64,000 bases of DNA. It comes from a bacterium (lineage in GTDB: Bacteria > Patescibacteriota > Microgenomatia > UBA1400 > UBA12108). Location of the stretch: positions 96,521 through 160,520 of the forward strand of contig JAJYKS010000002.1 in the NCBI GenBank assembly GCA_021788365.1, given 5' to 3'. Within the stretch, counting starts at the first letter, position 1. Each line of letters starts with the position of its first letter. Positions 6,243 through 64,000 of the stretch are shown in pieces. The position numbers and the translations under genes are program-made. The notes beneath the pieces are model-generated. The model made no database searches. It was not told where the DNA came from and was given only the letters and a program-made list of their open reading frames with translations.

Positions 6243-6944
6243 ATGCAGCTATTTTTGAATAAATTAGTTGAGAAGGCGCTCACGCAAGGCGAGGTAGGGA
6301 ACCGCGCCAACAAAATACAAATCACCGGTGCCTGGAATCCCGACATCGTTATCTCCCGAGATCCGGGGAGTGGCGGTCGCGTCATCGCGCAAAAAATCGC
6401 CAAAAAACTCGAGTGGAAGCTGCTCGATAAAAAAATCATGGAAGAGCTCTCACGCGATCTAGGTATTCCCGAACGAGAGTTCGCCGAAGTCGACGAGCAT
6501 GGCCGCAGTTGGCTCACAGACTCTATCCGTACACTTTTCGATCCCCACTTTGTCTCGGATGTAACGTACGTCAATCACCTCAAGCGTCTGCTGACGCACG
6601 CGGCAAAAGGGGCCGATATAGTGATCGTTGGTCGCGGTGCCAACCACATTATCCCCGCCGACAAATGCCTGCGCGTCAAGATCACTGCATCCTGGAAAAC
6701 TCGAGTAGACAATACCTACAAATATGAAAAAAAGAAATCGCGCGAAGAAGCAGAGGCTTGGGTAAAGCACGTCGAGGAAAAGCGCAACCGCTTTATCGAA
6801 CAATATTTTGGTATGGAAGGCTGTCACCCAGAACACTTTGACCTCATTGTGAATACCGATTACCTCACCCTCGATACCGCCCGCGACATGGTGATTGCTG
6901 CGTTCTACGCCAAATTCCCTGACATGCGCCGCAGAGTCAAATAA
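6243..6944 (+). CDS. Cytidylate kinase-like family protein (AAA_28/CMP kinase-like P-loop protein)
   Basis: 233 aa with an N-terminal ISRDPGSGGRVIAQKIAKKL glycine-rich loop typical of the cytidylate kinase-like family. Host-like GC. Confidence 0.55.
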   Translation: MQLFLNKLVEKALTQGEVGNRANKIQITGAWNPDIVISRDPGSGGRVIAQKIAKKLEWKLLDKKIMEELSRDLGIPEREFAEVDEHGRSWLTDSIRTLFDPHFVSDVTYVNHLKRLLTHAAKGADIVIVGRGANHIIPADKCLRVKITASWKTRVDNTYKYEKKKSREEAEAWVKHVEEKRNRFIEQYFGMEGCHPEHFDLIVNTDYLTLDTARDMVIAAFYAKFPDMRRRVK

Positions 6945-8679
6945 CTTCCCGTACGGTATAATTACTTCGTTGCCGAGATGGCGGAACTGGTAGACGCGCA
7001 CGTTTCAGGAGCGTGTGGAGCAATCCATGGAGGTTCAAGTCCTCTTCTCGGCACCATAGAGAACTTTTTAAATAGTTTTTCAAATCTTCCCGATTTGACA
7101 AGCTATTTTCAGGTTCAAGCGGTCCATTTTTATCGTTGGTGGTTTTTGCACCCTCTTTTAACTTCAAAAAGATAAATCTAGGCTGATATTCAAGTTTTTG
7201 ATCTAGTAAGATCGGGTTCAAGCCGATTGCCTTGAAAATGACCTTTTTGTCTTCTGAGTCTCCACTTTCAAACCGTTGCTTAGCCAGTAACGCGAACTCG
7301 AAGGAGTCTTTTGCAACCTCAGCCCAGTCGGATTCACCACTTTTTGCATGAGCTAGTTGGTGGGTAAGGTTATCTTTCTCGATCATCAGCTCACGTTTCC
7401 TGTCACCAAACTCGGCGTCTGAAAGTAAGCTGCCATCATTTTCTGGGGATATCTTGAGAGCTATCAGATTATCAATTCTCCGATTTACCCCGTCTAAGGC
7501 AGTCTGGAGAGCTTCTACACTTGTTTTATTGACCACCTGACTCTTTTCCTTGGTTTCGTTGAGGGCTTCATACGCCCAATCTACAAATTCCTTATCTTTA
7601 ATCTCGAGTTGACATAAATCGCTAGCGAACTGTCCCTCCAATTTTGAAGTTGAGATGTAGCGCTGGTTACATTTTTCTTCTCCCTTTTTCGTACAACTAT
7701 AGTAGCCAAATACTTGTTCAGTACCATTTTTGTATTTCTTTTTGTGTTCCTGGGCGGTGATGCAGTAATGGCACTCTCCACAATGGATAATACCGTTCAA
7801 GGCGAAGTCATGCTTTTGTTGTCTTGCCTTTGATCTGCCATCTAAAATGTCTTGTAAGAGGTTAAATTCTGCTTCACTGATCATTGCTGGATGTTGGCCT
7901 TGGTATATTTTGCCACAATACATAAACTTGCCGGTATAAAATGGATCACGTAATAGTCTGTGCATCCAACTTTTAACGATAGGCCTACCAGATTTAGAGC
8001 TTCTGATTCCTAAAATCTTGGCTTCACGCATCAATGCTTGAACGCTGTAATTACCAGTTAGTGCAAGATCGAAGAGTTTTCTCATTAAAGGAAAATACAC
8101 CGGGTGAGGTGAGATATCGCGTAACCCTTGAGGTTTTTCGTGATTATTTTTGTATCCTGGTCGTGCTCTACCCGGAAATACACCTCGTTCAGCTTTGAGT
8201 TTTAGTGCCTCCGTGACATTGACACTTTTATTGTCATTCTCAAGTTTTGCCTGGGTACAAAGCAAATTCAGCATGAATTTATCATTCGGATTATTCCGGA
8301 ATGTTTGGTATGGGGTTACTACTTCAAGCAGCTTACCTTGATCCATTAGGTAGATAACCCTGCCGGTATCGACCGTGTTTCTTGATAGACGTGAGGGGTT
8401 AAGAAGCACGATTCCATTCACATCGCCATCTTCAATCTTTTGTATAAGTTGTCCAAAAATAGGTCTGCCTGGAATTTTAGCCGTTCGTTGTTCTTGAAGT
8501 GGTTCACCGACGAGCTCAACACCTCGCTGACGGACGAGAGCAGTTAAATTCGTAATCTGATCAGGAAGTGATTGAATTTGTCTCTCATCAGATTCACTAC
8601 TTTTTCGGCAATACATCATATAGCGAGGGATAATCGGCGTCTGACTTATATTTTGCGTGTTATAGTCTGCCAGTCTCAT
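6937..8679 (-). CDS. Large serine recombinase (integrase) of the island
   Basis: 580 aa with an N-terminal resolvase domain (catalytic Ser in [12 protein letters not shown]), a recombinase domain, and a Cys-rich zinc-ribbon region (CGECHYC...CTKKGEEKC). The likely real start is the MMY at about 8619. The last ~39 codons run antisense through tRNA-Leu, so the true C-terminus is uncertain. Confidence 0.85.
6972..7056 (+). tRNA. tRNA-Leu (anticodon CAG) with encoded CCA
   Basis: Acceptor stem is GCCGAGA/TCTCGGC. D stem is GCG/CGC with an 11-nt D loop containing GG. Anticodon stem is CACGT/GCGTG with loop TTCAGGA (anticodon CAG). A long variable arm is followed by T arm GGTTCAAGTCC, discriminator A and CCA. 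The low-GC island begins immediately 3' of this gene. Confidence 0.85.
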
Positions 8680-8875
8680 ATTGCCTCCTTTCTGGTTGAG
8701 AAGATGTAGGAATAGATGTTTCTGTTTTAATCGGTTTTTGTTTTGGTCGTATTAAGACTTCCATTAGATTGAGAAAATGTGTTGCCAGTTCGGTTGCTTC
8801 CTCGTCCGTGAGAGTAATGTCATATTTGTCTTTATATAACCTCTTAAACTTATCTAAATACTCTTTGCTGATCAT
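8660..8875 (-). CDS. Small protein upstream of, and co-oriented with, the serine recombinase; possible directionality or regulatory factor
   Basis: 71 aa. It overlaps the recombinase start. A related small ORF sits in the same position upstream of the second recombinase (61696..61998), with a shared Y-x-(L/I)-(T/S)...E..E...FL pattern. Confidence 0.4.
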   Translation of the reverse strand: MISKEYLDKFKRLYKDKYDITLTDEEATELATHFLNLMEVLIRPKQKPIKTETSIPTSSQPERRQYETGRL

Positions 8876-9068: not shown

Positions 9069-9293
9069 ATGAATATGATTCCAGACGAAAAGAGCCAAAA
9101 AGCATTTGGTAAAAATCTTCGCTCAGTGAGGGAAGATAAAAGACTCTCTCAAGAAGAGGTTGCAACCCTGAGTAAGATTTCCACCACTCACTATGCCGGA
9201 ATTGAACGTGGAGAAGAAAACCCTACTTTTTCAGTGCTAGAAAACATCTGTAAAGCGCTCAAAATCAAGTCCTCCCAGGTTCTTCCTTTTTAA
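9069..9293 (+). CDS. XRE-family helix-turn-helix transcriptional regulator
   Basis: 74 aa with an HTH_3 pattern (LSQEEVATLSKISTTHYAGIERGEENPTFSVLENICKALKI). Confidence 0.7.
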   Translation: MNMIPDEKSQKAFGKNLRSVREDKRLSQEEVATLSKISTTHYAGIERGEENPTFSVLENICKALKIKSSQVLPF

Positions 9294-9359: not shown

Positions 9360-11951
9360 ATGTTAAAGATAACATCTCTACAAATAATTCTTTCTAAATA
9401 TACCTTTCGTTTGTTTGTTTTTGTTAATCCATATATCACACCTCTAAAAATAGCAGTTGTTGCGACGGTTGCGCTGTATGTGTGCTATCAGCTATTACGA
9501 CTTTATTTCACCATCAAACAACTAAAAGAGAAAAGTATTCTCTTTGAACTTCAGCCACTAAAAAATACTGAGCAATCCTCATATACCACTCAGCAATTAT
9601 TTGCCATTTTGCATGGACTTGCCAAACAGCGATCCTTTATTAATCGATTATTTGATATACAAAAGATCTATGCTTTTGAGATCGTTTCAACAAAGAATGG
9701 AGGAATAACCTATTACACAAGAATTGGCGAAGAAGAGGCTGACTTAGTGAAGAAAACCCTTTTAGCGTATTTGCCAGGAATCAGTGTAAAAGAATCGACT
9801 GATTACTTACAGTTCCTTACCAATCAACACAAACGAATATCAAGTTATAAACTTTCTAGGCACTTTGCATGCCCACTAAAACATCAAGAAGACCTGACGC
9901 TCCATGATCCGATAGCGTATCTAACTGGAAGTATGACTAAACTTACCGAGGATGAACTTATTGCTTTTCAAGTTGTGTTATCTCCGCTTCGCAAGTCTTC
10001 ACTTCCGGCTGTTTCGCGGATTTCTCACCTTATATATTCAGGTAAAGATTTAGTTTCAAACATCGGAAACGATACAGATACAAACCCAGTTATTATTGTT
10101 TTCAAGACTCTGTTTAGAGTAGTACTTCGCGTCCTTATGCTTCCATTTGGCTTATTGGTATTTATCACCACAGACGGACGAGAAGGTCCGGTATTAAGAC
10201 TTCCTACAGATATAGCACCGCTTAAAACCCCCAATCCATATCAGATTGAGCTTGAACAACTTGTAAAACATAAACTTGATCAACAGTTATTCACTTCATC
10301 TGTAAGACTAATGGTAGCGAGCAATAATTACAGCGAACTCAGAAAAAGAGAAAGAGGTTTTCAATCTGCTCTATCTGCGCTGAATAATTCAGACTATCAA
10401 GCTCTTATTCCATCATTTAGGATCACGTTAAAGCTATTTGATCGATTAATGGAGGTTCTTTATAACCATAGATTATTGATACCGACTAAATCATTGATTC
10501 TCTCAGCTACCGAAATTTCTGATCTGTATCACTTTCCCTATACCAGTACGACCAAAACGGAGGATTTACTCAAGCAACATAGTAAAGAACTACCAGCACC
10601 ACTGTCCTTGAAACAGAAGCAGGAATGCGATTTGTACTTTGGAATAAATACCTATGGTGGCACTGAAACAAAAATAGGATTAACGACTGATGAAAGACGA
10701 CGCCATGTCTATATTCTCGGAGCAACGGGCACGGGTAAATCCACCATGCTGTTATCAATGATTAAACAGGACATAGATCATGATAAAGGATTATGTGTCG
10801 TCGATCCTCACGGTGATTTAATCGAACAGATTGTATCCGTTATTCCTCATGGTCGTATTTCTGATGTTGTGTATTTTAACCCAGATGATATTAGCTATCC
10901 GATGGGCATTAACCTCCTTGAATTGACTCCGGGGTTAAATCCGGAAGATGCTATAAGAGAAAAAGAATTTATTGCTGAAAGTATCATCTCGGTTTTCCAT
11001 AAAATTTACACCGATAAATACTCCGGCCCAAGAATGGAATATATTTTGCGCAATACGATTCACACCGCCTTTACCGTGCCGGATGTAACCTTGTTTACCG
11101 TCTACAAACTTCTGATAAATACCTCATATAGAAAAGGGGTTGTGAGAGGACTTACCGATGAAAACCTCAAGGACTTCTGGAAATATGAATTTGCAAAAGC
11201 CGGTGATTACCAGAAAGTGAAGATGATTTCTCCGATTACTAACAAAATCGGGCGCTTCCTATTTTCTCCGACTGCAAAACGAATTCTTGAACAAGGCAAG
11301 TCGACAATTAACTTTGACACAATCATGAACGAAGGTAAGATTCTGCTTTGTAATCTATCGAAAGGAAAAGTTGGCGAGGATAATTCCGAAGTCTTCGGCG
11401 TACTTATCATGGCTAAGATCCAGTTGGCCGCTTTAAAAAGAGCCAGGATGAAGCAAGAAAATAGAAAAGATTTCTACCTATACGTTGATGAGTTCCAAAA
11501 CTTTGCCACTCCTGCGTTTGCCCAGATTCTCTCAGAAGCTCGTAAGTATCGATTAGGTGCAATTCTCGCTCACCAAACCACTTCACAACTTGAAGATATC
11601 TCGCTCGTAAATATTACCCTGGCCAATACTGGTACAGTCATTTGTTTCCGTACGGCTAATCCAGAGGATGAACGGATGATCTTGCCACAATTCAGGCCAT
11701 ATATTGAACAAGGTGAAATTGCCAGTCTTCCTTCATACCATTTTTACATGAGACTTGGAGCACTTAATCCTGAAGAGCCGTTTTCAGGCGTTACTGTTCC
11801 GGTGAAGATTGAATACAGTCAAAATAGGGTGAATGAGGTTATTGAATCGTCCAGAAAATTGTATGCCAAATCCTATACTCCCGAGAAACAATCATCAGTC
11901 AAAAAACCTACGAATCAAGCTATTCAAAAGATCTATGCTACAGTGCCATAA
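9360..11951 (+). CDS. Type IV secretion coupling protein (VirD4/TraG/TraD-like T4CP) with a large N-terminal membrane/extracytoplasmic domain
   Basis: 863 aa. Two TM segments are separated by a ~190-aa loop. Walker A is YILGATGTGKST followed by VDPHGD. The C-terminal TraG-D_C-like region reads YVDEFQNFATPAFAQILSEARKYRLGAILAHQTTSQL. A close paralog begins at 62169. Confidence 0.7.
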   Translation: MLKITSLQIILSKYTFRLFVFVNPYITPLKIAVVATVALYVCYQLLRLYFTIKQLKEKSILFELQPLKNTEQSSYTTQQLFAILHGLAKQRSFINRLFDIQKIYAFEIVSTKNGGITYYTRIGEEEADLVKKTLLAYLPGISVKESTDYLQFLTNQHKRISSYKLSRHFACPLKHQEDLTLHDPIAYLTGSMTKLTEDELIAFQVVLSPLRKSSLPAVSRISHLIYSGKDLVSNIGNDTDTNPVIIVFKTLFRVVLRVLMLPFGLLVFITTDGREGPVLRLPTDIAPLKTPNPYQIELEQLVKHKLDQQLFTSSVRLMVASNNYSELRKRERGFQSALSALNNSDYQALIPSFRITLKLFDRLMEVLYNHRLLIPTKSLILSATEISDLYHFPYTSTTKTEDLLKQHSKELPAPLSLKQKQECDLYFGINTYGGTETKIGLTTDERRRHVYILGATGTGKSTMLLSMIKQDIDHDKGLCVVDPHGDLIEQIVSVIPHGRISDVVYFNPDDISYPMGINLLELTPGLNPEDAIREKEFIAESIISVFHKIYTDKYSGPRMEYILRNTIHTAFTVPDVTLFTVYKLLINTSYRKGVVRGLTDENLKDFWKYEFAKAGDYQKVKMISPITNKIGRFLFSPTAKRILEQGKSTINFDTIMNEGKILLCNLSKGKVGEDNSEVFGVLIMAKIQLAALKRARMKQENRKDFYLYVDEFQNFATPAFAQILSEARKYRLGAILAHQTTSQLEDISLVNITLANTGTVICFRTANPEDERMILPQFRPYIEQGEIASLPSYHFYMRLGALNPEEPFSGVTVPVKIEYSQNRVNEVIESSRKLYAKSYTPEKQSSVKKPTNQAIQKIYATVP

Positions 11952-11954
11952 CTT

Positions 11955-12085
11955 TACCTACCGGTAGGAAAACACTATTTTGAGATTAGCCCGATTTATA
12001 GACCTTTTTACTTTTTATTTTTACCCCTTATTCCTTATATATAAGGGAGAGGAATGATACAATCATTCCAGATTCTGCCCACAGA
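11955..12085. promoter_or_regulatory. Candidate origin of transfer (oriT) or control region rich in palindromes
   Basis: Perfect palindromes CCTACCGGTAGG (11957-11968) and CCTTATATATAAGG (12033-12046) plus hairpin GGAATGAT-aca-ATCATTCC (12051-12069). The region lies between the T4CP gene and the replication-relaxation family gene. Confidence 0.35.
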
Positions 12086-12091
12086 CACACT

Positions 12092-12865
12092 ATGGACAAT
12101 CAAAAACTAACTACCACACAATTAAACATTCTTCACTATATCTATCGCTTTCGCTTCTTAACCAGTCTACAACTTCAAAAACTTCTTACTCACAAAAATA
12201 TCCGCCTGACTAACTACTACCTACAATTACTCACTGCAAAAAATTACATCGGCAAACACTATACTCGGTCACTCAGTCTAGCTAATATACCCGCGGTCTA
12301 TTTTCTTACCTCAGGAAGTATTCAAGTGTTAGAGAATACCGACGGAATCGAAAAACGAGCATTGAATCGGATCTATCGAGAAAAAATCCGCTCTCAACAA
12401 TTTATATCCCATACATCATTTTTAGCGGAGTACTATCTATTTCTGAGAAGTGAATCTGAAAAATCAAAGCACACACTCGATTTTTTCACGAAAACCGATC
12501 TTTTAGCACATCCCTACATAATCCATCCATTACCCGATGGTTATTTTGCGAGGGTCGATAACGTAGGCAACACTAAGCGATATTTTGTTGAAGTTATCGA
12601 GGATAGTTCACCTCGGTTTGCCTTACGTAAAAGAGTTCAGGCGTATTGTGATTATATTGATGAAGGAAAATTTGAGAGGGCCACAAGCCATCCGTTTCCG
12701 GTGATCCTCTTTATATGTCCGGGTATAGCGAGCCTTATATACCTAAAGAAACACATATCACGAATGTATGAAGAAATATCATTTGACCAAGTTGATATTT
12801 ATATCGCCACCCGTGAGGGTGCGTTTTCCGGAAAATGGGAAAAGGTGGAAGCAGAAGATGACTAA
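12092..12865 (+). CDS. Replication-relaxation (Replic_Relax) family protein; putative relaxase or mobilisation protein
   Basis: 257 aa with an N-terminal winged-helix-like segment (LTTTQLNILHYIYRFRFLTSLQLQKLL). Size and position next to the T4CP fit Replic_Relax proteins of Gram-positive ICEs. Family assignment is from memory. Confidence 0.4.
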   Translation: MDNQKLTTTQLNILHYIYRFRFLTSLQLQKLLTHKNIRLTNYYLQLLTAKNYIGKHYTRSLSLANIPAVYFLTSGSIQVLENTDGIEKRALNRIYREKIRSQQFISHTSFLAEYYLFLRSESEKSKHTLDFFTKTDLLAHPYIIHPLPDGYFARVDNVGNTKRYFVEVIEDSSPRFALRKRVQAYCDYIDEGKFERATSHPFPVILFICPGIASLIYLKKHISRMYEEISFDQVDIYIATREGAFSGKWEKVEAEDD

Positions 12866-13360
12866 TTACGGCATGAAAAAGTAGTTATATTCATCAAACG
12901 GAAAGTGTCCGGCCGGTTTGTTCAAGAGTAGATCAGCCAATTCCCAGGCGGTCATATTTTCTGAAATTCTGTACTCTGCGTTTGTGTCGATTGAGCCGTT
13001 ACCGATCTTGATTGCTTTGTCGCTTGGCGTGGAGTCTTTAGTGTGTTCTAGAGCCAACTTGAATGCTTTTTCATCCCGTATAAAACCATAATAAAAAAGA
13101 TTACCTATAAGAGCGTTAAGGGTAACGTCTTTGTTTATTCGTAAATCTACCGTTCCGTCCACTCCTGGCCTCGATCTGATTTTTTCAGCCTCAGCTACAG
13201 GCATATGGAGGCGTTCAATAAAATAATCTTCTACTTTCTTAGCTGATTTCCAGTCTTTCCCTGGAGCCTTAAAATTTTCTACGTTTGGTTTAGTAATTAA
13301 AGAATAACCACCTAATACTAACAATAAAAACACGACCAATATACTGATTTTCCTGATCAT
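12866..13360 (-). CDS. Membrane-anchored or secreted hypothetical protein
   Basis: 164 aa with an N-terminal hydrophobic segment (ISILVVFLLLVLGGYSLI). No catalytic motif recognised. Confidence 0.4.
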   Translation of the reverse strand: MIRKISILVVFLLLVLGGYSLITKPNVENFKAPGKDWKSAKKVEDYFIERLHMPVAEAEKIRSRPGVDGTVDLRINKDVTLNALIGNLFYYGFIRDEKAFKLALEHTKDSTPSDKAIKIGNGSIDTNAEYRISENMTAWELADLLLNKPAGHFPFDEYNYFFMP

Positions 13361-13643
13361 GCCCTTATTATAGACCTTCTAAGCTAGACGCTTTCTTTTC
13401 GGCCGAGAAACCTATTCAGCTCCCTACGTCCTTCTTCTGTTTGACGAAACTCATAAAACAACTTAGCGCCTTTATCTGTTAAAAATGACACATATACAGG
13501 TAAATCATTGAGTGACATTTTTCTAAATTCCTGCAACCGTCATATCGACGGTGTAACTTTTAAAAACTGGTAGTATTCTGATCATATTTTTATTCCTTTC
13601 TAATCCCATCCGCTGGATTGCTAGGCCAGCGAATGGGTAACTT

Positions 13644-13958: not shown

Positions 13959-14005
13959 ATGTTGTCACCTCCTTTTTTTTGGGTTTTCCCTGATAATTTA
14001 TTTTT

Positions 14006-53047: not shown

Positions 53048-53074
53048 ATACAATTATGCACGAAAAAATACTTT

Positions 53075-54822: not shown

Positions 54823-54824
54823 CT

Positions 54825-55439: not shown

Positions 55440-57219
55440 TCTAACCAAAATCAAACCTATTCGGGATTGGCAGAGGCGCCAAAAGAAAAAACGCCTCACT
55501 CATCAGGCGATCAATATCACGTTTGGTGAACAAGACCAACTTGAGCTTATGTCCTATGCCGGAATGAAAGAAGAATCCAGTTATTTGCAGATCAATGATA
55601 CGTTCGTGAGAACTCTGTTTGTGTCAGGTTACCCATATGTTGCTTCAACCGGTTGGCTATCGATGCTCGTAAACTTCAACCACAATATCGATATCAACTA
55701 CCATATAGAGCAAATTGACCCACTCATTGCCTTGCCTAAATTGAATCGGAAGATTACAGAACTTGAATCTACTAAACGCACCATGCTCAAAGAGGGTCGG
55801 GTGATTGGGAGTGAAATTACTGATCCGCTCGAATCGGCCATGGAGCTTAAAGATAAAATTCAACGAGGTATGGAAAAGCTGTTTCAGGTCTCAATCTATA
55901 TGACTGTTACTGCCGATAGTCTTGTTGAGCTTAATAAAGTCACAAAACTACTGGAAACGGTCATGCAGACACGACTTTTCTACATTAAGCCAGCGACGTT
56001 TCAACAAGTCGAAGCACTTCAATCCATATTGCCCAGAGGTGAAAACAAATTAGCTCAGAAACGAAATCTGGATAGCTCAAGCGCCGCCTTGACCTTCCCG
56101 TTTGTCTCATCTGAACTCGTCCAAGAATCAGGCATCTTATATGGTATCAACAAATCAAATAACTCACTGGTCATTATCGACCGGTATAGTTTAAACAACG
56201 CCAACTCGATAATTTTTGCCCAGAGTGGATCCGGAAAAAGCTTTACCGCTAAAGTCGAGATACTCCGGCACCTCATGCAAGGCACAAAAGTCATTGTGAT
56301 CGACCCAGAACGCGAATATAAACAACTGGCCAAAAGTGTGGGTGGTACATATATCAAGCTATCAAGTACATCCAAGGAAAAGATTAATCCGTTTGATTAC
56401 TCCCAGAATTCGGTGACGGGTGAAAATAGCCTCACTGAACACATCCAAGACCTGACAGAACTCATTTCTCTTATGGTTGGCTCTCTGACCTCCGAAGAGC
56501 GGGCAACAGTCGACAGAGCCCTCCTACAAACGTATAAGAACGTAGGGTTAAGTAAGAGAAAGAACGGGAAAAAGCCAGCAAAAATTGTATATCCACTCCT
56601 CAAAGACTTTTACAACGAGCTTAAGGCATTAAAACATAAAGACCTTTGCAATCGGCTTGAACGGTTTGTGAAAGGGTCACTTGGTGGAGTATTCGATTCC
56701 CAAACCAACATTGAGATGAATAATCGCCTCGTCGTGTTTGATATTAAAGATCTCAGCGAGTCCTTACGTCAAATCATGATGATGGTGGTTGCTAACTTCG
56801 TACATAGCGAAGTCAAACAGAGTCCACAAAAGCGCATGTTAGTTATCGATGAGGGTTGGATACTCCTACAAGAGCCGGAGAGCGCCAGATTTATCTCAGG
56901 CTTAGTACGACGCGCCAGAAAATACTATCTGGGAGTCACCATTATCACGCAACAAGCCAACGATTTTCTTTCACAGGAATACGGCAAAGCAGTAGCCAGC
57001 CAATCCTCCCTGCGCATATTAATGAGACAAGATACAACCACCATCAAAAAAGTTGCCGAAGAGTTTCACCTCTCAGCCTTTGAACAGCACTATTTATTAA
57101 CGTGCGAGCGGGGTGAGGCATTAATTATTGCCGATCAGAATCATGTTGCTGTTAAAGTAGTGGCATCTGAGGAAGAACACCCGCTTCTTACAACTGATCC
57201 TCGGGAAATATACATCTGA
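55432..57219 (+). CDS. VirB4/TraC/CagE-like T4SS ATPase (ATPase domain)
   Basis: 595 aa with Walker A FAQSGSGKSFTAK, Walker B LVIDEGWILL and a VirB4 C-terminal pattern. Confidence 0.85.
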   Translation: MFNLTKIKPIRDWQRRQKKKRLTHQAINITFGEQDQLELMSYAGMKEESSYLQINDTFVRTLFVSGYPYVASTGWLSMLVNFNHNIDINYHIEQIDPLIALPKLNRKITELESTKRTMLKEGRVIGSEITDPLESAMELKDKIQRGMEKLFQVSIYMTVTADSLVELNKVTKLLETVMQTRLFYIKPATFQQVEALQSILPRGENKLAQKRNLDSSSAALTFPFVSSELVQESGILYGINKSNNSLVIIDRYSLNNANSIIFAQSGSGKSFTAKVEILRHLMQGTKVIVIDPEREYKQLAKSVGGTYIKLSSTSKEKINPFDYSQNSVTGENSLTEHIQDLTELISLMVGSLTSEERATVDRALLQTYKNVGLSKRKNGKKPAKIVYPLLKDFYNELKALKHKDLCNRLERFVKGSLGGVFDSQTNIEMNNRLVVFDIKDLSESLRQIMMMVVANFVHSEVKQSPQKRMLVIDEGWILLQEPESARFISGLVRRARKYYLGVTIITQQANDFLSQEYGKAVASQSSLRILMRQDTTTIKKVAEEFHLSAFEQHYLLTCERGEALIIADQNHVAVKVVASEEEHPLLTTDPREIYI

Positions 57220-57220
57220 C

Positions 57221-57829
57221 ATGAATCCAAAACTGTTCCTTACTCTCTGGTCATTTCGCAAGGAACTGAAATTTGTATTCCTAGCATTTCTTGCGATCCT
57301 CATGTTTCCAGTCATCGGAGTAATCCTTCTTACTCAGGTTGGTATTAACATCATCTCTGATAAGCTGGTTGAAAGTAATCCGGTTACTCAATCAATTGAA
57401 ATCAAGGACCCGACATCCGGGAATGTGGTTAAATCAATCACTCCACAGGTTGTTTGGCCTGTACACGGGGTTATAACGCTAGAATTCGGACAGTCGAGTG
57501 GGTATCAGGTGTTCCATACAGGTATTGATATAGCCAATCCCAATGGACAGATCGGAGATCCAATTAACCCAGCCATGAACGGTGTCGTTACGTACGCCGG
57601 AGAAATATTCTGGGGGTATGGCAAACATATTATTATTGATAATGGGAACAATATTACAACCGTCTACGCGCATCTCGATAAGATTTATGTCTACCCAGGT
57701 CAGAAAGTTACTATCACAGATATGATTGGAAGAGAAGGACAAACCGGTTGGGCTACAGGACCTCATCTACACTTTGAAACAAGAATATATGGGATACCAG
57801 TCAATCCGAGAGTATTTTTAGGCCAGTAA
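57221..57829 (+). CDS. M23/LytM-family peptidoglycan endopeptidase (T4SS cell-wall hydrolase)
   Basis: 202 aa with an N-terminal TM segment and the motifs HTGIDIA, GYGKHIIIDNGNNITTVYAHL and GPHLHFE. Confidence 0.85.
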   Translation: MNPKLFLTLWSFRKELKFVFLAFLAILMFPVIGVILLTQVGINIISDKLVESNPVTQSIEIKDPTSGNVVKSITPQVVWPVHGVITLEFGQSSGYQVFHTGIDIANPNGQIGDPINPAMNGVVTYAGEIFWGYGKHIIIDNGNNITTVYAHLDKIYVYPGQKVTITDMIGREGQTGWATGPHLHFETRIYGIPVNPRVFLGQ

Positions 57830-57862: not shown

Positions 57863-58759
57863 ATGTATCTGAATAATATGGCAACAACGATCAATCAAGC
57901 ATTTACACAATTTAAATCTAATCTAAATATTACTGGATTACAGGCGCAAACAGTTTCAACGCGTCAACAAAACGTGCGAAAGGTTGTCGAGGAAGGATTA
58001 ACCGTGTTGGATTCGTTCCTTACAGGATCTTACTCTAGAGGCACAATGATTTGTCCACTTTCTGAAGCTGATATAGATATTTTCATGGTACTCGATAATT
58101 CATATTACTATCATTACCATGGTAAAAATGGTGGTCAGGCAGGTTTATTGGACTTTGTGAAACGGACTTTACGAAAAACGTATACAAAAACACCGGACAT
58201 AAGCAGGAACGGCCAAGCAGTTACAATTAGATTTGATGATTTTATGGTTGATGTAATCCCAGCATTTAATCGGCAAGGTGGAGGGTATTTGATTCCGAAT
58301 TCTATAACTCAATCTTGGCTCTCAACAAATCCAAAAAAGCATGTTGAGTTAATCAGCGCATCAAATTCAGCTCACAATGGAGATTTCGTTCCACTTGTTA
58401 AAATGATCAAATGCTGGAACCGCAATATACAGTCTCACTTTCATTCTTTTCATCTTGAAGTACTTGCCCTCTCAATTTTTTCGAATATAGAAATATCGGA
58501 CTTACCGTCTGGGGTGCGATACTTTTTTGACAAAGCAAGAGTATTGGTTACAAAGCAAAATTCCGATCCGGCTGGGTATGACGGAGACGTAGGTAGCTAT
58601 ATAAATAACCAAGATAAGATCGATGAAGCCGTTTCAAGACTCCAGACAGCATATGATCGAGCAGTCAAAGCTGAATACTGCTCAACTCTAGGACAAACAA
58701 GCAATGCCATAGACGAATGGAGAAAAATATTTGGCAATTACTTCCCTACATATGGCTAA
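57863..58759 (+). CDS. SMODS-type (CD-NTase-like) nucleotidyltransferase
   Basis: 298 aa with a Pol-beta NTase core GSYSRGTMICPLSEADIDIFMVLD (GS-x9-S/DxD) and a helical C-terminal half. A 2TM SLATT-like gene follows. Family assignment is by motif and context. Confidence 0.5.
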   Translation: MYLNNMATTINQAFTQFKSNLNITGLQAQTVSTRQQNVRKVVEEGLTVLDSFLTGSYSRGTMICPLSEADIDIFMVLDNSYYYHYHGKNGGQAGLLDFVKRTLRKTYTKTPDISRNGQAVTIRFDDFMVDVIPAFNRQGGGYLIPNSITQSWLSTNPKKHVELISASNSAHNGDFVPLVKMIKCWNRNIQSHFHSFHLEVLALSIFSNIEISDLPSGVRYFFDKARVLVTKQNSDPAGYDGDVGSYINNQDKIDEAVSRLQTAYDRAVKAEYCSTLGQTSNAIDEWRKIFGNYFPTYG

Positions 58760-59321
58760 TACTACGAGAACAACCAAAACTACCGCTAGTGAAAAACCTA
58801 TTTCTCAGGCGAAGGACGAAATTATTAAGGAGGCAAAAAGAATTGAAGAAGCCTGCCTTTTTTCAGCAAAGCGTCATTTTATTTCTGCTAATTTCTGGGG
58901 AGGTCTGAATTACTGGTTAGGTATACCAGCTGTCCTTTTATCTGGTGTTGTCGGAGTATCAGTATTCTCCGACTTTGATAAAACTCATACAATTTCAAAA
59001 TTGTCCTCAATTTTTGTAGCAGGCCTAACAAGCTTAATGACTTTTCTCAATCCCAATCAAAAATCATCGACACACCAAGACTCTGGTAATAGCTACGATG
59101 CTTTACTAAATAAGGTCAGAATATTTTGGTCAATAGACTGTTGGGAAGAGAAGTCGACAGAAGTGCTAACTGGAAGATTAAAGGGTATTTCGGAAGAAAA
59201 GGACAGATTAAATAAAACCAGTCCACAAACTATTGGAATATCGTACTTTCTTGCAAAACGATCAATCGAACGAGGAGAGGCAAGCTATACTGTCGATAAC
59301 CAAGACCTACCAGCCAATTAG
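58731..59321 (+). CDS. SLATT-like two-TM effector protein partnered with the SMODS NTase
   Basis: 196 aa. An N-terminal helix (ACLFSAKRHFISANFWGG) is followed by two closely spaced TM helices (LGIPAVLLSGVVGVSVF and LSSIFVAGLTSLMTFL) and a ~90-aa soluble tail. It overlaps the NTase by 29 nt. Confidence 0.45.
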   Translation: MAITSLHMANTTRTTKTTASEKPISQAKDEIIKEAKRIEEACLFSAKRHFISANFWGGLNYWLGIPAVLLSGVVGVSVFSDFDKTHTISKLSSIFVAGLTSLMTFLNPNQKSSTHQDSGNSYDALLNKVRIFWSIDCWEEKSTEVLTGRLKGISEEKDRLNKTSPQTIGISYFLAKRSIERGEASYTVDNQDLPAN

Positions 59322-59548
59322 TTTGGTAAATCTTCTTCAGACTTCAAATCTCGAGCTTTCATGCTCATAAACGTATCAGAGGTTTTAAGAAGTTCGGCAA
59401 ACTCAATAGCATTTTCATTATGGTCAGGATCAAGAACATCGAGTATTTTCTGCACATCATCCATAACGTTGATATTCATATTATGATCATGCGCATATTG
59501 AAGCGCATCTATCACGAGTTCAGACTTTTGTGAAACTGGATCTTTCAT
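59318..59548 (-). CDS. Small acidic hypothetical protein downstream of the PLD nuclease
   Basis: 76 aa, D/E-rich, no motif recognised. It lies 11 nt after the nuclease gene on the same strand. Confidence 0.3.
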   Translation of the reverse strand: MKDPVSQKSELVIDALQYAHDHNMNINVMDDVQKILDVLDPDHNENAIEFAELLKTSDTFMSMKARDLKSEEDLPN

Positions 59549-59559
59549 AATTTTCTCCT

Positions 59560-60072
59560 TTAGTATAACAAATGTTTTTTAATATCACTAACTTGATCGT
59601 ATTTCAAAAATTTAAACAAGACTTCTGCCTTTTGCTTGTTTTCGTCACGCTCCATAAACTCACGAGTATTTCGGTGAGAGAGGATATTGAGACTGCCTTT
59701 CCATACTATTGTCCTATCAATCATTGCCAACTTCCTATGGTGTGACTTACAGAGAAGTACCTGAATGCCTAATTTCTCAAAATATTGTATTCCTGCCTCA
59801 GATTGCTCGACCATGAACGAATCATGCTCTTCGGGATGTCTCGTGATGATAAATACCGCCACCCCTCGCGCAATCAACCGTTCAAAAGCAGCTTTCAGAC
59901 TACGCATCTTCGGAACCGTGATATATGGACTTTCAATAATCACTTCTTGCTTCGCTTGGTTCAAATCCTGCTCGAATTGGTAGTAAAAGCTATTTTCATC
60001 TGTTAAAATATAGCTTGCAGTCTGGGAATCAAGAGATTGCGTGTCCATTGGGGACTTAGTGAACCAGTTCAT
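59560..60072 (-). CDS. PLD/HKD-family nuclease (Nuc/BfiI-like, single HKD)
   Basis: 170 aa with an HxKx4D...GSxN motif (SHHRKLAMIDRTIVWKGSLNI). No signal peptide. Confidence 0.7.
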   Translation of the reverse strand: MNWFTKSPMDTQSLDSQTASYILTDENSFYYQFEQDLNQAKQEVIIESPYITVPKMRSLKAAFERLIARGVAVFIITRHPEEHDSFMVEQSEAGIQYFEKLGIQVLLCKSHHRKLAMIDRTIVWKGSLNILSHRNTREFMERDENKQKAEVLFKFLKYDQVSDIKKHLLY

Positions 60073-60145
60073 TGTTTTCCCTCCTTTTTAAAATGAGCGA
60101 TGGAAATGATGAGACTAGCTTTCTCTTTGGGATCGATAGAGGAGG

Positions 60146-61699
60146 TTAGGTAGGTTCTAACATCGTCCCAGATGGTGCACTAGAAAAGAGAGCATTAGTA
60201 TCAATGGTACAAATTGATTGATACAACGGGCTAATCTGGCGGTTCAAGGTGCCATTTTGGTTCCAAGCCAACCCTGACGGGAATATTGAACCAAGGAGTA
60301 CTTTGATCTGGCTAAGGCTTGATCTTTTATACGTTTCTCCTAAATCCGCAAGCAGCGTTCGTATAAAAGTAGTAACGTCTTCAATATTATATTTATCAAT
60401 CGTGGCATCGTCTTTGACGATATGTGCTTTGGTCATTCGGTCCTCAATAACAGCATTTTGCTCTTTATACACCTCGTCAGAATACACACCAGCCAGGTTT
60501 TTCTCGACCAATGTTTTCCGAAGTGCTTTTAGTGTGGCAATCTCTTGATCTGCCTCGGTTTTTATCTTTTGCAGTCTTGATAGCCGTTGGTGATATGTCC
60601 GATACAGGAATGTAATAAAAAGGTTTAGACACTCCTTTTTTGGTGTTACCTGTTTGAGTGTTTGAACAACGGAATTTTCAAGTATTTCCGATTTAGCTGC
60701 TACGCCCTTACAAACACCACAGCACCGGTAATACGCATATTTGGCATGTCTACCTTTACTCCAGCCGCCAGTCATTCCCATTCCGCAAACTCCGCATCGG
60801 ACTATCCGGCGGAGAGGAAAATCTGGGTTGGCATGATTTCTTTTGGCAAGTGCCACTTTATTTGGATTTCGACCATCTAGAATTGCTTGTACGCGATAAA
60901 ACTGCTCATCAGTAATCATGGGCACATGTTGCGCTTTTACTTCCTCAAGGTACGTCTTAGATGTTAAAATACCCATGTAAAACTTATTCCTGAATAACAC
61001 ATCAACGCGTTGAGCACGGATAATAAATTCCCGTTTTCCTCGTCGCTCTTTCATGCCCCACACGTTCATAAGGTCTGCCATTTCCTGTAAACTCTTTGTT
61101 CCCGTCGCCATGAGGTCCCAAGATTTTTTCATTAAATCCCAAGTTTTGTCATCTTTAACTGCATAGCCTGCTTGAACGGCATATCCCAGAGGAACTTGGC
61201 CCGTAACGATCATACCGGAAAGAAATCTCGCTTTAAGACCGTTTCGTGACCGTTCGCTGCGGATATCATTATCAAGTTGAGCAAATCCGGCAAGAATCGT
61301 CTCAACGAGTTTTTCAGTAGGGCTATCACCAGTCGGCTCAGTTGCAGAGAGTATAGTTACTCCGTTCTCTGTTAGCTTTTTTCGAATTGCCAAGTAGTCA
61401 GCAGTTATACGGGAAATGCGGTCCAGACGATACACAAATACCGCTTGTACCGCGTGTTTATGCTTCCGGCAATATTCAAGAAGCTGGATAAGTATCGGTC
61501 GTCCGGTGATGCTTTTGGCGGACCTGCCTTCTTCACGAAACATCTCGATTACTTGATATCCGCGTTTTTCTGCCTCTTTCCTGCAAATTTCTTCTTGGGT
61601 ACCCAGTGAAAAATTATCAACTTGTTCCTCGGTAGAAACTCGAAGATAAAGTACCGCCTTTTTCCCATCGGCATAAACGGCATTATTTAATTTCATCAT
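60146..61699 (-). CDS. Large serine recombinase, second copy
   Basis: 517 aa with an N-terminal resolvase domain (AVLYLRVSTEEQ; catalytic Ser), a recombinase domain and a Cys-rich zinc ribbon (CGVCGMGMTGG...YRCCGVCKG). Confidence 0.85.
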   Translation of the reverse strand: MMKLNNAVYADGKKAVLYLRVSTEEQVDNFSLGTQEEICRKEAEKRGYQVIEMFREEGRSAKSITGRPILIQLLEYCRKHKHAVQAVFVYRLDRISRITADYLAIRKKLTENGVTILSATEPTGDSPTEKLVETILAGFAQLDNDIRSERSRNGLKARFLSGMIVTGQVPLGYAVQAGYAVKDDKTWDLMKKSWDLMATGTKSLQEMADLMNVWGMKERRGKREFIIRAQRVDVLFRNKFYMGILTSKTYLEEVKAQHVPMITDEQFYRVQAILDGRNPNKVALAKRNHANPDFPLRRIVRCGVCGMGMTGGWSKGRHAKYAYYRCCGVCKGVAAKSEILENSVVQTLKQVTPKKECLNLFITFLYRTYHQRLSRLQKIKTEADQEIATLKALRKTLVEKNLAGVYSDEVYKEQNAVIEDRMTKAHIVKDDATIDKYNIEDVTTFIRTLLADLGETYKRSSLSQIKVLLGSIFPSGLAWNQNGTLNRQISPLYQSICTIDTNALFSSAPSGTMLEPT

Positions 61700-61998
61700 T
61701 TGCCTCCTTTCTCATGCAGTAATTCCTGCAGAGTTAAACCTTTAAATATGTGTCGCTCATATTCATCAAGCCAGGTTTCAGTTAAAAACTCTACCTCCAT
61801 GACGACGGTCTCAAGCTCTGTTGCGGACAATTCATATCCGAGAAGTCCTAGTGCGTCTTTTGCTTGCTTGAGGCGTTTCTCTTCATATTTTTGTTCGGGA
61901 AATAATTTTTCAAGGGATTGCTCCGTACTTTGTGGAATAGTAACCAACCCTAGTTCTTTTTGCTCTAATCCCATGGCAGTTTGCATACTCATATCCAA
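61696..61998 (-). CDS. Small protein upstream of, and overlapping, recombinase 2; homolog of 8660..8875
   Basis: 100 aa with a 4-nt overlap onto the recombinase start. It shares YELSATELETVVMEVEFL with YDITLTDEEATELATHFL in the module-1 small protein. Confidence 0.4.
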   Translation of the reverse strand: MDMSMQTAMGLEQKELGLVTIPQSTEQSLEKLFPEQKYEEKRLKQAKDALGLLGYELSATELETVVMEVEFLTETWLDEYERHIFKGLTLQELLHEKGGK

Positions 61999-62072: not shown

Positions 62073-62168
62073 TCCCAGCATTTTTGCACAAATTCCATCT
62101 CTGGAGTATCATTCTAACAACATCAAATACGTTGAGTTGACGATGCTAACTGCCCGTAAAGGGTAGTT

Positions 62169-64000
62169 ATGTTTAAAAATAACGTTATTCTGATAATTCT
62201 TCAAAAAGAGCTTTTTAAGGTAAGCGACTATTTACATCCATATTTCATTGTTTGGCTCCATGTGCTTACTGACTATATCCCGTTTATATTTGTAGGTGTT
62301 GTCACGTTGATCGTTTTCTGGGTCGCCTATCTGGCGATCAAGTTACGTCTAATTTGGAACGAATCGGGTAAACCAGTCGCATTGTTTGAAGTTTCACCGC
62401 CCACAAACACAGAACAAAGTTCCTTTACTACCACTCAGCTATTCACCTCAGTCCACGGACTCCTGAAACAGCGTTCGTGGCTACTTAGACTCTTTGACGT
62501 GACAAAATCCTACGCGTTTGAAATTGTATCTACAAAAGACAAAGGTATTCGATATATCTTCCGTATTGCAACCGAAGACGAACAAATCATCAAAAAGACT
62601 CTGATTGCATACCTCCCAGGTATTCAAGTTAAAGAAATTGACGACTATCTCGATCCAAACATTACTCGCGGTCATGTTCTTGATTTTCGTTTAACCCATC
62701 ATTTTGCGTTTCCCCTAAAAAAACAAGAAAAACTCGAGGAATACGATCCCATCTCCTACATTACCGGGACTATGACCAAATTAGAGGCTAGTGAGCTGGT
62801 TGCGGTACAAACCGTGGTATCTCCCGTGAGTCGATCTATATCGCGAAGCGTTGGACACTTACGATCACTCTTCCTGGGAAAGAAAGACATACTCACGGAA
62901 TTAGCCTTCAGCAATCAAGCAGGATCATTCTTGATGTTTGTTATTCGTTTTTGTCTGCAACTTTTATTATTTCCTGTTGGGCTTATGATTTTCGTCTTTA
63001 CTGGTGGTCGTGAAGGCCCGATGCTACCGATTATGTCCCTTAAAGCTCAATTACCGGATAGTACGTATCGCGATATTGTAGAGACTCAAATCAAACAAAA
63101 AATTGACCAACAGCTTTTTACAGTTTCGTTGAGATTTCTGACCGTTGCCGATTCGTATACCAATAGATCAAGAATCGAGAAGGGGTTCGTTGCAGCACTG
63201 TCGCCATTCACTAATGCGGGATATCAATCGCTACGTCCAAAAAGATATATAAAAGTAAAGGCAGTAAACAACGAACTGTTGTGGCTGTATCAACATCGAA
63301 TACTCGGATTCATTGATAATTTAGTTTTATCTACGTCTGAACTATCTGACCTCTATCATTTCCCATATACCAGCACAACAAAAACAGAAAATCTCTCCAA
63401 ATTGCACAGTCGAGAACTTCCTGCTCCGTTATCGCTTAAACAAAAATCTGCGTGTGATCTCTATTTTGCCAAAAATACCTATGGCGGTACTGAAACAAGG
63501 ATTGGTTTGACGCTCGATGAACGAAGACGCCATGTGTATATTTTGGGGGCAACCGGAACCGGAAAATCTACAATGCTTCTGTCAATGATCCAGCAGGATA
63601 TCGAACACAAGAAAGGATTATGTGTTATTGACCCGCACGGTGATTTGATTGAACAGGTGCTATCAATTATTCCTAGAGAGCGGATACCGGATGTCGTGTA
63701 CTTTAACCCAGACGATATCAGCTATCCGATGGGTATTAATTTACTCGAACTGACACCTGGATTATCTTCTGAAGATGCTATCCGCGAAAAGGAGTTCATC
63801 GCTGAAAGTATTATTTCTGTCTTCCACAAAATCTACTCTGACAAGTATTCCGGCCCGAGAATGGAATATATTTTGCGAAACACAATCCACACAGCTTTTA
63901 CTGTTCCTGATGCCACACTATTTACGATCTATAAACTTTTAATAAACACCCCATTTAGAAAATCAGTTGTACGGAATCTAACAGACGAGAACCTCAAGGA
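62169..64000 (+). CDS. Second VirD4/TraG-like coupling protein (paralog of 9360..11951), 5' portion; continues past the window
   Basis: Translation from the ATG at 62169 aligns along its length with the 9360 protein. Examples: TNTEQSSFTTTQLF, FEIVSTKDKGIRY, LYHFPYTSTTKTE, and Walker A YILGATGTGKSTMLLSMIQQDIEHKKGLCVIDPHGD. It is absent from the ORF table because no stop codon occurs inside the window. Confidence 0.7.
   Translation, partial: MFKNNVILIILQKELFKVSDYLHPYFIVWLHVLTDYIPFIFVGVVTLIVFWVAYLAIKLRLIWNESGKPVALFEVSPPTNTEQSSFTTTQLFTSVHGLLKQRSWLLRLFDVTKSYAFEIVSTKDKGIRYIFRIATEDEQIIKKTLIAYLPGIQVKEIDDYLDPNITRGHVLDFRLTHHFAFPLKKQEKLEEYDPISYITGTMTKLEASELVAVQTVVSPVSRSISRSVGHLRSLFLGKKDILTELAFSNQAGSFLMFVIRFCLQLLLFPVGLMIFVFTGGREGPMLPIMSLKAQLPDSTYRDIVETQIKQKIDQQLFTVSLRFLTVADSYTNRSRIEKGFVAALSPFTNAGYQSLRPKRYIKVKAVNNELLWLYQHRILGFIDNLVLSTSELSDLYHFPYTSTTKTENLSKLHSRELPAPLSLKQKSACDLYFAKNTYGGTETRIGLTLDERRRHVYILGATGTGKSTMLLSMIQQDIEHKKGLCVIDPHGDLIEQVLSIIPRERIPDVVYFNPDDISYPMGINLLELTPGLSSEDAIREKEFIAESIISVFHKIYSDKYSGPRMEYILRNTIHTAFTVPDATLFTIYKLLINTPFRKSVVRNLTDENLK

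Follow-up and report, generated by a model that had tools for sequence, protein, structure and literature searches.

The stretch of DNA analyzed herein, referred to as the window, comprises 64,000 nt and is identical (100%) over this length to contig k141_818376 (130,751 bp) of the European Nucleotide Archive (ENA) assembly ERZ27233565, a window position being the position in that contig minus 62340. From the 3' end of a tRNA-Leu(CAG) gene onward, the window is occupied by an island of low G+C content (GC), which very probably represents two related integrative and conjugative elements (ICEs) belonging to one Patescibacteria-wide family and lying head to tail; the gene content, boundaries, family-wide conservation and site geometry described below are matters of observation. 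In 1-kb bins, GC ranged from 45-55% for positions 1-7000 to 35-47% in each bin of 7001-64000, and the overall values were 51.6% for the host part vs. 40.5% for 7055-60180, so that the discontinuity at the tRNA-Leu 3' end proposed in an initial annotation of this DNA was confirmed by the windowed check. The best named relatives of the host UvrA were those of Candidatus Woesebacteria (73%) and Collierbacteria (72%), accompanied by further metagenome-assembled genomes (MAGs) of the Microgenomates group and Patescibacteria, and the host of the island is a Microgenomates-group bacterium. The proteins of 60 open reading frames (ORFs) of the window were scanned against Pfam, and the genes and sites on which the argument turns are as follows (aa, amino acids).

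6972-7056, plus strand: tRNA-Leu(CAG) gene (ARAGORN; Rfam tRNA, 51.4 bits)
7051-7054 and 60177-60180: GCAC, common to the tRNA 3' end and the element right end
6937-8619 (ORF up to 8679), minus strand: large serine recombinase 1 (Pfam Resolvase 2e-16, Recombinase 3.4e-10, Zn_ribbon_recom 3.7e-6)
8660-8875, minus strand: 71-aa ORF, partner of recombinase 1, kept beside recombinase-1-type genes (68% in L001, 61% in L159)
9069-9293, plus strand: XRE-family helix-turn-helix regulator (Pfam HTH_3 9.7e-12; 81% identical in L001)
9360-11951, plus strand: type IV coupling protein 1 (T4CP-1), 863 aa (Pfam TrwB_AAD_bind, DUF87, TraG-D_C, T4SS-DNA_transf)
12092-12865, plus strand: Replic_Relax protein (PF13814, MobC superfamily), candidate relaxase (Pfam 1e-10, 42.5 bits against a cutoff of 25.3)
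12866-13360, 13384-13536 and 13644-13958, minus strand: 164-aa ORF, 50-aa ORF and DUF2958 gene (tblastn, same order in relatives; DUF2958 1.6e-19)
52751-53047, plus strand: VirB2-like pilin (Pfam)
53075-54352, plus strand: pilin/VirB6-like protein (Pfam)
54349-54822, plus strand: PrgI/VirB3-like protein (PrgI match under the Pfam cutoff, E 8.3e-4)
54825-55439, plus strand: TraC/TrsD-like protein (Pfam)
55432-57219, plus strand: VirB4 (P-loop_TraG 1.3e-25)
57221-57829, plus strand: M23 peptidase (Pfam)
59318-59548 and 59560-60072, minus strand: right-end module, consisting of a 76-aa ORF and a phospholipase D (PLD)-family protein (Pfam PLDc_2 2.7e-13)
60141-60180, plus strand: family right-end site (P arm), ...GGTTCTAACATCGTCCCAGATGGTGCAC
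60146-61696, minus strand: large serine recombinase 2, 516 aa (Pfam Resolvase 2.9e-32, Recombinase, Zn_ribbon_recom)
61696-61986, minus strand: 96-aa ORF, partner of recombinase 2 (called on the ENA contig; 66-68% in L006, L009, L010, L015 and L026)
62169-64000, to 64775 on the source contig, plus strand: T4CP-2, 868 aa in full (Pfam DUF87, TrwB_AAD_bind)

The two serine recombinases and the two coupling-protein paralogs recognized in the initial annotation were both confirmed by Pfam, and the order given there for a first module, namely recombinase and small protein on the minus strand followed by XRE regulator, T4CP and Replic_Relax on the plus strand, was borne out by the Pfam matches and ORFs. 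As to the second module, recombinase 2 (minus) and T4CP-2 (plus) stood, but the order of small protein and recombinase had been reversed, because the partner ORF lies upstream of recombinase 2 as in the first module; the ORFs at 59318-60072 form the right-end module of element 1 and fall outside the second module. PF00239, PF07508 and PF13408 match both recombinases (three-domain architecture), which are only 27% identical to each other. Recombinase 1 comprises 560 aa from Met21, as does the ENA gene call, and recombinase 2 carries the N-terminal motif LYLRVSTEEQ. The 71-aa partner ORF gave no Pfam match and is a candidate directionality or regulatory factor. T4CP-1 and T4CP-2 share 58% identity in the part that lies within the window and 65% along their whole length. 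In k141_818376, which runs 4.4 kb beyond the window, the rest of T4CP-2 is followed by LMWPc, a second Replic_Relax gene, a 100-aa ORF, a second DUF2958 gene and a 301-aa ORF, after which the contig ends. The element 2 copies of Replic_Relax and DUF2958 are 68% and 81% identical to those of element 1, respectively, and stand in the same gene order. In the relatives, the Replic_Relax gene always directly follows the T4CP gene; its product, which belongs to a family classed as MobC by CONJscan (PMC5357655), is by family assignment a candidate MobC-type relaxase. The intergenic DNA between T4CP and relaxase, taken as a putative oriT-like region in the initial annotation, was found to contain a weak 11-nt palindrome at 11953-11972 and nothing else.

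The mating-pair-formation genes were assigned by Pfam on the window ORFs together with the precomputed Pfam matches of the identical ENA contig. From its domain content, the cluster at 52751-57829 can be read as a minimal type IV secretion system (T4SS) of the monoderm type, and its gene order is the same in seven related loci (L007, L009, L014, L017, L065, L091 and L131).

Relatives were sought with T4CP-1 and T4CP-2 as queries in one genome per species, which yielded 35 loci (loci are cited by their L numbers). Most of the taxonomically informative labels were Patescibacteria groups, and about a dozen loci were otherwise labelled, including Gammaproteobacteria, Pseudomonadales, Clostridiales, Eubacteriales and Nevskiaceae (L002, L012, L014, L016, L018, L021, L022, L025, L031 and L033). 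In the MAGs under non-Patescibacteria labels the element and its flanks look patescibacterial; these are probably mis-binned or mislabelled MAGs, and transfer outside the phylum is less likely. By tblastn, the family was revealed to share one gene order, in which the recombinase (minus), a small ORF (minus) and sometimes an XRE gene (plus) are followed by T4CP, Replic_Relax, and the 164-aa, 50-aa and DUF2958 genes (minus), and then, after a variable gap, by pilin/VirB6, PrgI-like, TrsD-like, VirB4 and M23 genes. In L009, L014 and L017, which are compact relatives of 12-16 kb, the distance from the recombinase (or T4CP) to M23 is 11-15 kb. Element 1 contains each of these backbone genes exactly once and in the family order.

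The association with tRNA genes proved to be a property of the family as a whole. In 13 genome loci, the 3' end of the recombinase gene abuts or overlaps the 3' end of a tRNA gene on the opposite strand (Leu, Glu, His, Ser, Gly). Homologues numbered 985 for the recombinase-2 type (type 2; E<1e-50) and 1150 for the recombinase-1 type (type 1; E<1e-30), and in most of the 240 homologues listed the C-terminal tail reads as tRNA antisense: type 1 tails read ...LKSS[LV]WC and then GREDLNLH... (tRNA-Leu antisense), those of close type 2 relatives ...SCADERT*, and those of more distant ones ...SGAGDGNRTRDLLLGKETFYH. The occurrence of serine recombinases at a tRNA site, which the initial annotation had singled out, thus not only holds but generalizes. 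Relatives of recombinase 2 with 84-89% identity also lie at tRNA-Leu 3' ends. The 90%-identity cluster of the element 1 VirB4 has 83 members, two of them from differently labelled MAGs (Candidatus Shapirobacteria and Gammaproteobacteria), whereas identity among the host UvrA proteins is only 60-75%, which suggests a recent spread. Members of the backbone with more than 90% protein identity are found in different lineages and at different tRNAs. No description of the element family was found in the open-access literature searched, which does not prove its absence.

Smaller relatives were observed as well. The segment 7900-17500 of L003, about 9.5 kb of low-GC DNA in surroundings of 50% GC, carries a type 2 recombinase (67%), T4CP, relaxase and DUF2958 and no T4SS genes; its left end has no tRNA and the recombinase tail reads ...PSGAPAVGLTRPQRT. 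The segment may represent a derivative that is mobilisable and has inserted elsewhere than at a tRNA. L076 (7183-9507) holds a miniature unit of ~2.5 kb with recombinase, small ORF, PLD gene and end site, and in L078 (5247-5721), L087 (625-1063) and L060 (352-3155) a tRNA-Leu is followed 330-900 nt on by the end site, sometimes several times consecutively. These miniature members are either decayed copies or non-autonomous elements. In L168 (4819-6995), the T4CP is cut down to its N-terminal DUF8128 part beside an insertion sequence (rve transposase), which is element decay by the insertion sequence.

The boundary between the two elements became evident from the right-end site. The PLD module of element 1 ends in ...GATGGTGCAC, and the homology of recombinase 2 to its relatives runs left exactly to the GCAC at 60177-60180, with no tRNA further left. 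The 20-mer at 60161-60180 (CATCGTCCCAGATGGTGCAC) was searched in metagenome contigs, and at least 120 stretches with exact matches were found; the counts that follow refer to the matches listed. In 111 distinct contexts, the ~100 nt left of the site were conserved at 0.9-1.35 bits per position, and right of GTGCAC the conservation fell at once to 0.1 bits. Of the 76 mapped loci of at least 4 kb, about 50 have the PLD gene immediately to the left of the site, usually with the 76-aa ORF, and M23, VirB4 and the rest of the T4SS lie further inside where the contigs reach that far. The DNA right of the site is unrelated from context to context, with a tRNA gene of a host cluster within 150 nt in 14 of them. 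Elements with type 1 (L090, L159) and type 2 (L076) recombinases share this same right end. Since the left side is conserved and the right side unrelated, the site is the universal right end of the family; element 1 therefore ends at 60180 and element 2 begins at 60181, making a head-to-tail array. Element 1 is thus complete at about 7055-60180 (53.1 kb). A decayed tRNA or pseudo-attB to the left of recombinase 2 had also been considered, and was discarded when the metagenome scan showed the family right end there.

Such junctions are not confined to the window. Full recombinases follow the site in L086/L128 and L148, a junction of this kind also occurs on the 69.9-kb contig of L168, and in about eight further contexts the site is succeeded by a short remnant of a recombinase. 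Two to three copies of the site 0.6-2 kb apart occur in L055, L059, L060, L077, L100, L114, L126, L132 and L134, which we interpret as arrays some of whose members have decayed. Short motifs similar to the outer portion of the site (GTTCTAACATCGTCC) were also observed within L019 (15539-15567, 16992-17008, 17547-17563) and L032 (21900-21916, 22335-22351); they are intergenic, with two to three copies per element, directly after ORF ends.

The initial annotation had left the choice between two related elements in tandem and one element with a duplicated module. The former is supported, element 1 having a full backbone and right end and element 2 beginning at the next base, and the latter is disfavoured. 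A further alternative, in which 60153-60202 is the intact attachment site (attP) of element 2 and a single circle of more than 61 kb was integrated through recombinase 1 only as a composite or cointegrate, is in our judgment improbable. The junction indeed resembles an attP in structure, the universal right arm and the left arm of recombinase 2 being quasi-palindromic around GTGCAC; P0046/L041, whose recombinase is 69% identical, is arranged alike, and a tandem array excised at its outermost sites would yield such a circle. However, the right arm is found family-wide whatever the recombinase type, so that any tandem array gives this junction, and each half has a full, non-redundant left module, with the entire backbone in element 1. 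Moreover, in single relatives a pair of ends never encloses more than one recombinase or more than one T4CP.

At the left end, the window can be aligned from CGGCACCA|TA.AGAACTTTTT with L001, whose recombinase is 80% identical and lies at another tRNA-Leu, and the junction in the type 2 relatives reads ...GGCAC|AAGAAGAG; in L015, a type 2 element is joined to a tRNA 3' end identical to that of the window. The crossover therefore falls at one and the same position for both types of recombinase, within GCAC or beside it. By this comparison, the attL crossover of element 1 is placed within or next to 7051-7054, and the tRNA-Leu(CAG) gene, which is intact with element 1 inserted, would be the left half-site (B arm) of attB. 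The att-like direct repeats expected in the initial annotation were not found, only GCAC being shared, and the expectation does not apply to this class of recombinase. In the window, blastn-short and local alignments gave no long direct repeat of the tRNA-Leu 3' end and only chance 11-15-mers; the lack of a long repeat with GCAC alone in common is what serine recombinases with a 2-bp crossover leave behind. The possibility that the right arm is an inverted copy of the left arm of element 1 was also considered, and was dismissed, as the sole candidate (52221-52237) lies inside a coding region.

The geometry of the two sites was compared with that of known serine-integrase sites, where the distal motif bound by the zinc-ribbon domain (ZD) is 5 bp nearer to the centre of attB than to that of attP (Rutherford et al. 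2013, PMC3783163). From GGTTC to the end of GCAC, 23 nt were counted in the tRNA (7032-7054) and 28 nt in the right-end site (60153-60180), and the right-end site thus looks like a tRNA 3' end at attP spacing. GGTTC would then be the ZD motif, and a T-loop motif common to tRNAs would explain how one arm can serve recombinases only 27% identical and different tRNAs. To judge from the lack of conservation right of the site in the pooled contexts, little of the host half-site past the tRNA seems to be read. The predicted circle junction of element 1 (60180 joined to 7055) is ...CCCAGATGGTGCAC|CATAGAGAAC..., in which a perfect 12-bp palindrome (ATGGTGCACCAT) is formed with the geometric centre GC, itself palindromic; at the junction present between elements 1 and 2, a hand comparison gave matches at 13 of 25 inverted positions.

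The crossover was further revealed to fall within the recombinase ORF. The last ~39 codons of recombinase 1 (6937-7054) are the antisense of the tRNA and host DNA, the ORF traversing the tRNA-Leu antisense to a stop at 6937, and the final 11 codons and stop of recombinase 2 lie inside the right-end site of element 1. On the other side of the crossover the right end contains one further feature.

60069-60179, minus strand: start-less conserved ORF, 36 codons here, CTIWDDVRTYLTSSIDPKEKASLIISIAHFKKEGKQ*

The consensus of this frame over about 35 codons is CTIWDDVRTYLTSsIDPKEKtaLIvAISHFKKEek. Among the matches listed, 101 of 103 contexts keep this frame open over 30 codons or more, vs. 5 and 2 for the other frames, and the information per codon position is 1.03/1.33/0.70 bits, the third position being least conserved. 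As an independent gene it was rejected, the conserved part having no start codon and the DNA upstream being variable. In circular element 1, the ORF of recombinase 1 is predicted to read ...KSSLWC|TIWDDVRTYL...KQ* in frame. A natural in-frame fusion of this kind, ...LKSSLWC|TIWDETRTYSTSRIDSKEKTALLEAIEYFTKEV*, was found in P0372/L168 on the 69.9-kb NCBI contig, and L057 holds a fusion remnant in the same frame. The type 2 recombinases cross in another frame and gain only 10 residues, PSGTM(L/F)EP(T/I) and then stop, as seen in the window, P0046/L041 and L086. With the crossover inside its ORF, the recombinase has a C-terminus that integration changes.

Catalysis, excision and transfer are inferred, as is the order of arrival of the two elements; the mechanism is drawn from what is established for ICEs and for large serine recombinases. 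The recombinase would recombine the site of the circular element with the tRNA 3' end, with the crossover in or next to GCAC, i.e., the last two acceptor-stem bases, the discriminator base and the first C of CCA; with a crossover at this place, the tRNA stays intact. The right arm of the element would present a T-loop-like GGTTCNA 5 bp further from the crossover than the tRNA does. The attL of a resident element, consisting of the tRNA and the left arm of that element, may remain a target and so give rise to arrays, given that no conservation was observed in the DNA beyond the tRNA. Once excised, the circle would be transferred by the relaxase, T4CP and T4SS. We further put forward, tentatively and as somewhat less probable than its contrary, that these sites follow an undescribed serine-integrase attachment logic, with an invariant tRNA-mimicking arm, an unread host arm and a crossover in the recombinase ORF that could act as a switch between integration and excision. 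In such a switch, the tail of the excised state would be the conserved one (~35 residues for type 1, 10 for type 2), and that of the integrated state would be set by the tRNA antisense.

Several observations weigh against the reading as two tandem conjugative elements. The junction 60180/60181 is documented by one MEGAHIT metagenome assembly (ENA ERZ27233565), the NCBI contig with the same proteins probably deriving from the same data, and the k=31 Logan assembly of SRR13170411, the contigs of which are 100% identical to the window, breaks exactly at 60180. The break could reflect real heterogeneity or just graph branching at a shared 30-mer; as proof of excision it was rejected, since one 30-mer in common is enough to interrupt a k=31 graph. 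The Logan contig carrying the cmk-like gene continues into element 1. An empty site or circular form was not recovered, the contigs with 99% and 85% identical UvrA ending before the tRNA. The source contig ends at window-equivalent 68411; neither element 2's right end nor the host DNA that follows was assembled, and the tandem arrangement is accordingly established at the left and middle junctions only. Furthermore, no VirB8-like gene was detected, and the relaxase call is a moderate Pfam match for which no relative of solved structure was found in the PDB. Finally, most Patescibacteria T4SSs have been argued to be non-conjugative (PMC12102498), a view also taken in a review of these systems (PMC12857230).

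The first of these points raises the question of an assembly chimera, in which element 1 really ends at host DNA and was joined to another element of the community through the shared right end. The terminal ~30 nt are identical among many elements of the same habitats, which together with the break in the k=31 assembly and the end of the contig within element 2 speaks for such an artefact. Nevertheless, the name k141_... would point to a final MEGAHIT k of 141, in which case a 141-mer must span the junction, and conservation past ~40 nt is partial; the same kind of junction also occurs in unrelated assemblies, including the long chromosomal contigs of L086, L128 and L168 (69.9 kb). We therefore regard a chimera as very unlikely. 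The last point bears on a fixed, no longer mobile island whose T4SS serves an epibiotic lifestyle in place of conjugation, a role proposed for Patescibacteria generally on account of seemingly absent relaxases (PMC12102498). It is in line with this that relaxases are absent from the majority of Patescibacteria virB4 clusters, these being located near oriC (PMC12102498), that a Saccharibacterium requires a T4SS for its epibiotic growth (PMC12857230), and that many family members are visibly decayed, with recombinase remnants and bare end-site arrays. In contrast, the T4SS of element 1 is enclosed in a low-GC segment between recombination sites, together with an intact recombinase, T4CP and relaxase, and the near-identity of backbone proteins across lineages and tRNAs noted above likewise argues against fixation, which makes a fixed island scarcely credible. 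Two tandem ICEs of one family thus remain, by a wide measure of confidence, our explanation of the locus.

Between these backbone genes, element 1 carries cargo in two slots; the remaining features of the window are listed below together with it.

6048-6122: tRNA-Arg gene (ARAGORN and Rfam)
14234-52511 (~38-39 kb): cargo slot 1 (Pfam)
24177-28002, minus strand: complete fluoride operon in cargo slot 1, with riboswitch (27941-28002), CrcB, DUF190, inorganic pyrophosphatase, major facilitator superfamily transporter and enolase (Pfam)
57863-58759 and 58752-59321, plus strand: cargo slot 2, a pair resembling a type I cyclic-oligonucleotide-based antiphage signalling system (CBASS), with SMODS cyclase and SLATT two-transmembrane (2TM) effector (PADLOC)

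Cargo slot 1 occupies the interval from DUF2958 to the pilin gene, which is about 1-2 kb in the compact relatives L014 and L017 vs. about 39 kb in element 1. It contains arsR/arsD/arsA, two YlbF-like genes, a methyltransferase, five P-type ATPases and a DsbD/cupredoxin protein, as well as a two-component system, a BlaI/BlaR-like pair, DsbA, PAP2 and the fluoride operon, the riboswitch of which matched Rfam RF01734 with 37.4 bits against a gathering score of 34. The pair in cargo slot 2 was scored by PADLOC at 2.9e-109 (cyclase) and 1.3e-61 (2TM effector) and by Pfam at 1.3e-27 (SMODS), and the same pair, 90-91% identical, fills the same slot in L051, L065 and L102. Judged by their domains, the two slots would hold genes for arsenic, metal and fluoride resistance (about 39 kb) and a CBASS pair. 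The five P-type (E1-E2) ATPases, with HMA/HMBD domains, lie at 18811-21072, 28241-30685, 42009-44243, 45368-47263 and 49338-52511 and are accompanied by ArsR/CsoR-type regulators; the sampled habitat was probably metal-stressed. A prophage in the middle of the island had been suspected from the sizes of the ORFs, but the large ORFs are these P-type ATPases by Pfam. No phage capsid, portal, terminase or tail genes were found among the 60 ORFs scanned with Pfam, and a scan of viral_contigs with recombinase 2 gave one distant match. Two internal direct repeats of ~74% were also noticed, one of a methyltransferase segment (17617-18211 vs. 23235-23823) and one of the region upstream of DUF2958 (13918-14144 vs. 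23949-24157, about 10 kb apart), which may be a trace of the capture of the first cargo block through recombination between elements. At the right end, the PLD protein is similar to the PLD nuclease domains found in MkoC and DrmC, two defence proteins (PADLOC 6.3e-14 and 4.2e-5), and may act in defence, anti-defence, entry exclusion or as a recombination accessory. On the host side, L058/L143 correspond to window positions 4678-7056 with UvrC-like (58%) and cmk-like (55% identical) genes; in that related genome the cmk-like gene and the tRNA-Leu(CAG) with its element are convergent, and in the window both run in the same direction, which suggests an inversion or rearrangement at the tRNA-Leu locus between lineages.

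If the attachment logic tentatively put forward above holds, it would mean, together with the relaxase, T4CP and T4SS, that some at least of the widespread Patescibacteria T4SSs are truly conjugative. This abundant family offers a handle on gene flow within the phylum, and the logic of its attachment sites would be of interest to serine-integrase engineering. Patescibacteria are regarded as having tiny, streamlined genomes. For a lineage with genomes typically under about 1 Mb (PMC12857230), ~39 kb of resistance genes and a defence system would be a sizeable load.

Among known systems, the combination of a serine integrase, a VirD4 coupling protein and a PF13814 relaxase corresponds to the streptococcal integrative and mobilisable elements of IME_Class_8 (Coluzzi et al. 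2017, PMC5357655). IME_Class_8 and related elements of Firmicutes share with the present family the serine integrase, VirD4-type T4CP and Replic_Relax/MobC relaxase, but IME_Class_8 is mobilisable only, having no T4SS, whereas a full minimal T4SS is encoded here; unlike IME_Class_8, the family also has a tRNA 3' end as target and an invariant right-end site with the PLD module. The gene set of this T4SS (VirB4, TrsD-like, PrgI/VirB3, VirB6, VirB2-like pilins and hydrolase) is that of the monoderm ICEs and plasmids of mating-pair-formation type MPF_FATA and of the Patescibacteria T4SSs, which were described as MPF_FATA-like and with few relaxases, namely 58 MOBC and 39 relaxase genes close to t4cp (Quinonero-Coronel et al. 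2025, PMC12102498). Those systems were chromosomal, mostly without relaxase and probably co-opted (PMC12102498), in contrast to the delimited element with recombinase, T4CP, relaxase and ends described herein, and recombinases, tRNA targets and element borders are not treated in that work.

As for the attachment sites, the integrases of A118/LI, Bxb1 and phiC31 (PMC3783163) resemble the present recombinases in their three domains, in the lack of long identity between att sites and in a distal motif 5 bp further out in the element site. Unlike in these phage systems, the T-arm and acceptor end of a tRNA form the host half-site here, conservation is lacking in the host DNA on the far side, one arm is invariant across 27%-identical recombinases, and the recombinase ORF spans the crossover. 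The SSV1-type integrases of archaeal viruses are tyrosine recombinases whose gene is split into two large parts by integration. They have in common with the present family that the attachment site lies in the integrase gene and that the integrated and excised states encode different proteins; unlike them, the serine recombinase here would lose only a ~35-residue C-terminal tail, in the recombinase-1 frame only. The tycheposons and tRNA islands of Prochlorococcus (Hackl et al., bioRxiv 10.1101/2020.12.28.424599) likewise build up at tRNAs, with remnants and tandem junctions. In tycheposons, however, large serine recombinases are found in a minority, most having tyrosine recombinases with partial-tRNA repeats, and they are not conjugative. 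A tandem island at a tRNA gene is as such ordinary; what goes beyond the ordinary is the host phylum, the evidence for a complete and abundant ICE family within it, and an attachment-site logic with an ORF that crosses the site.

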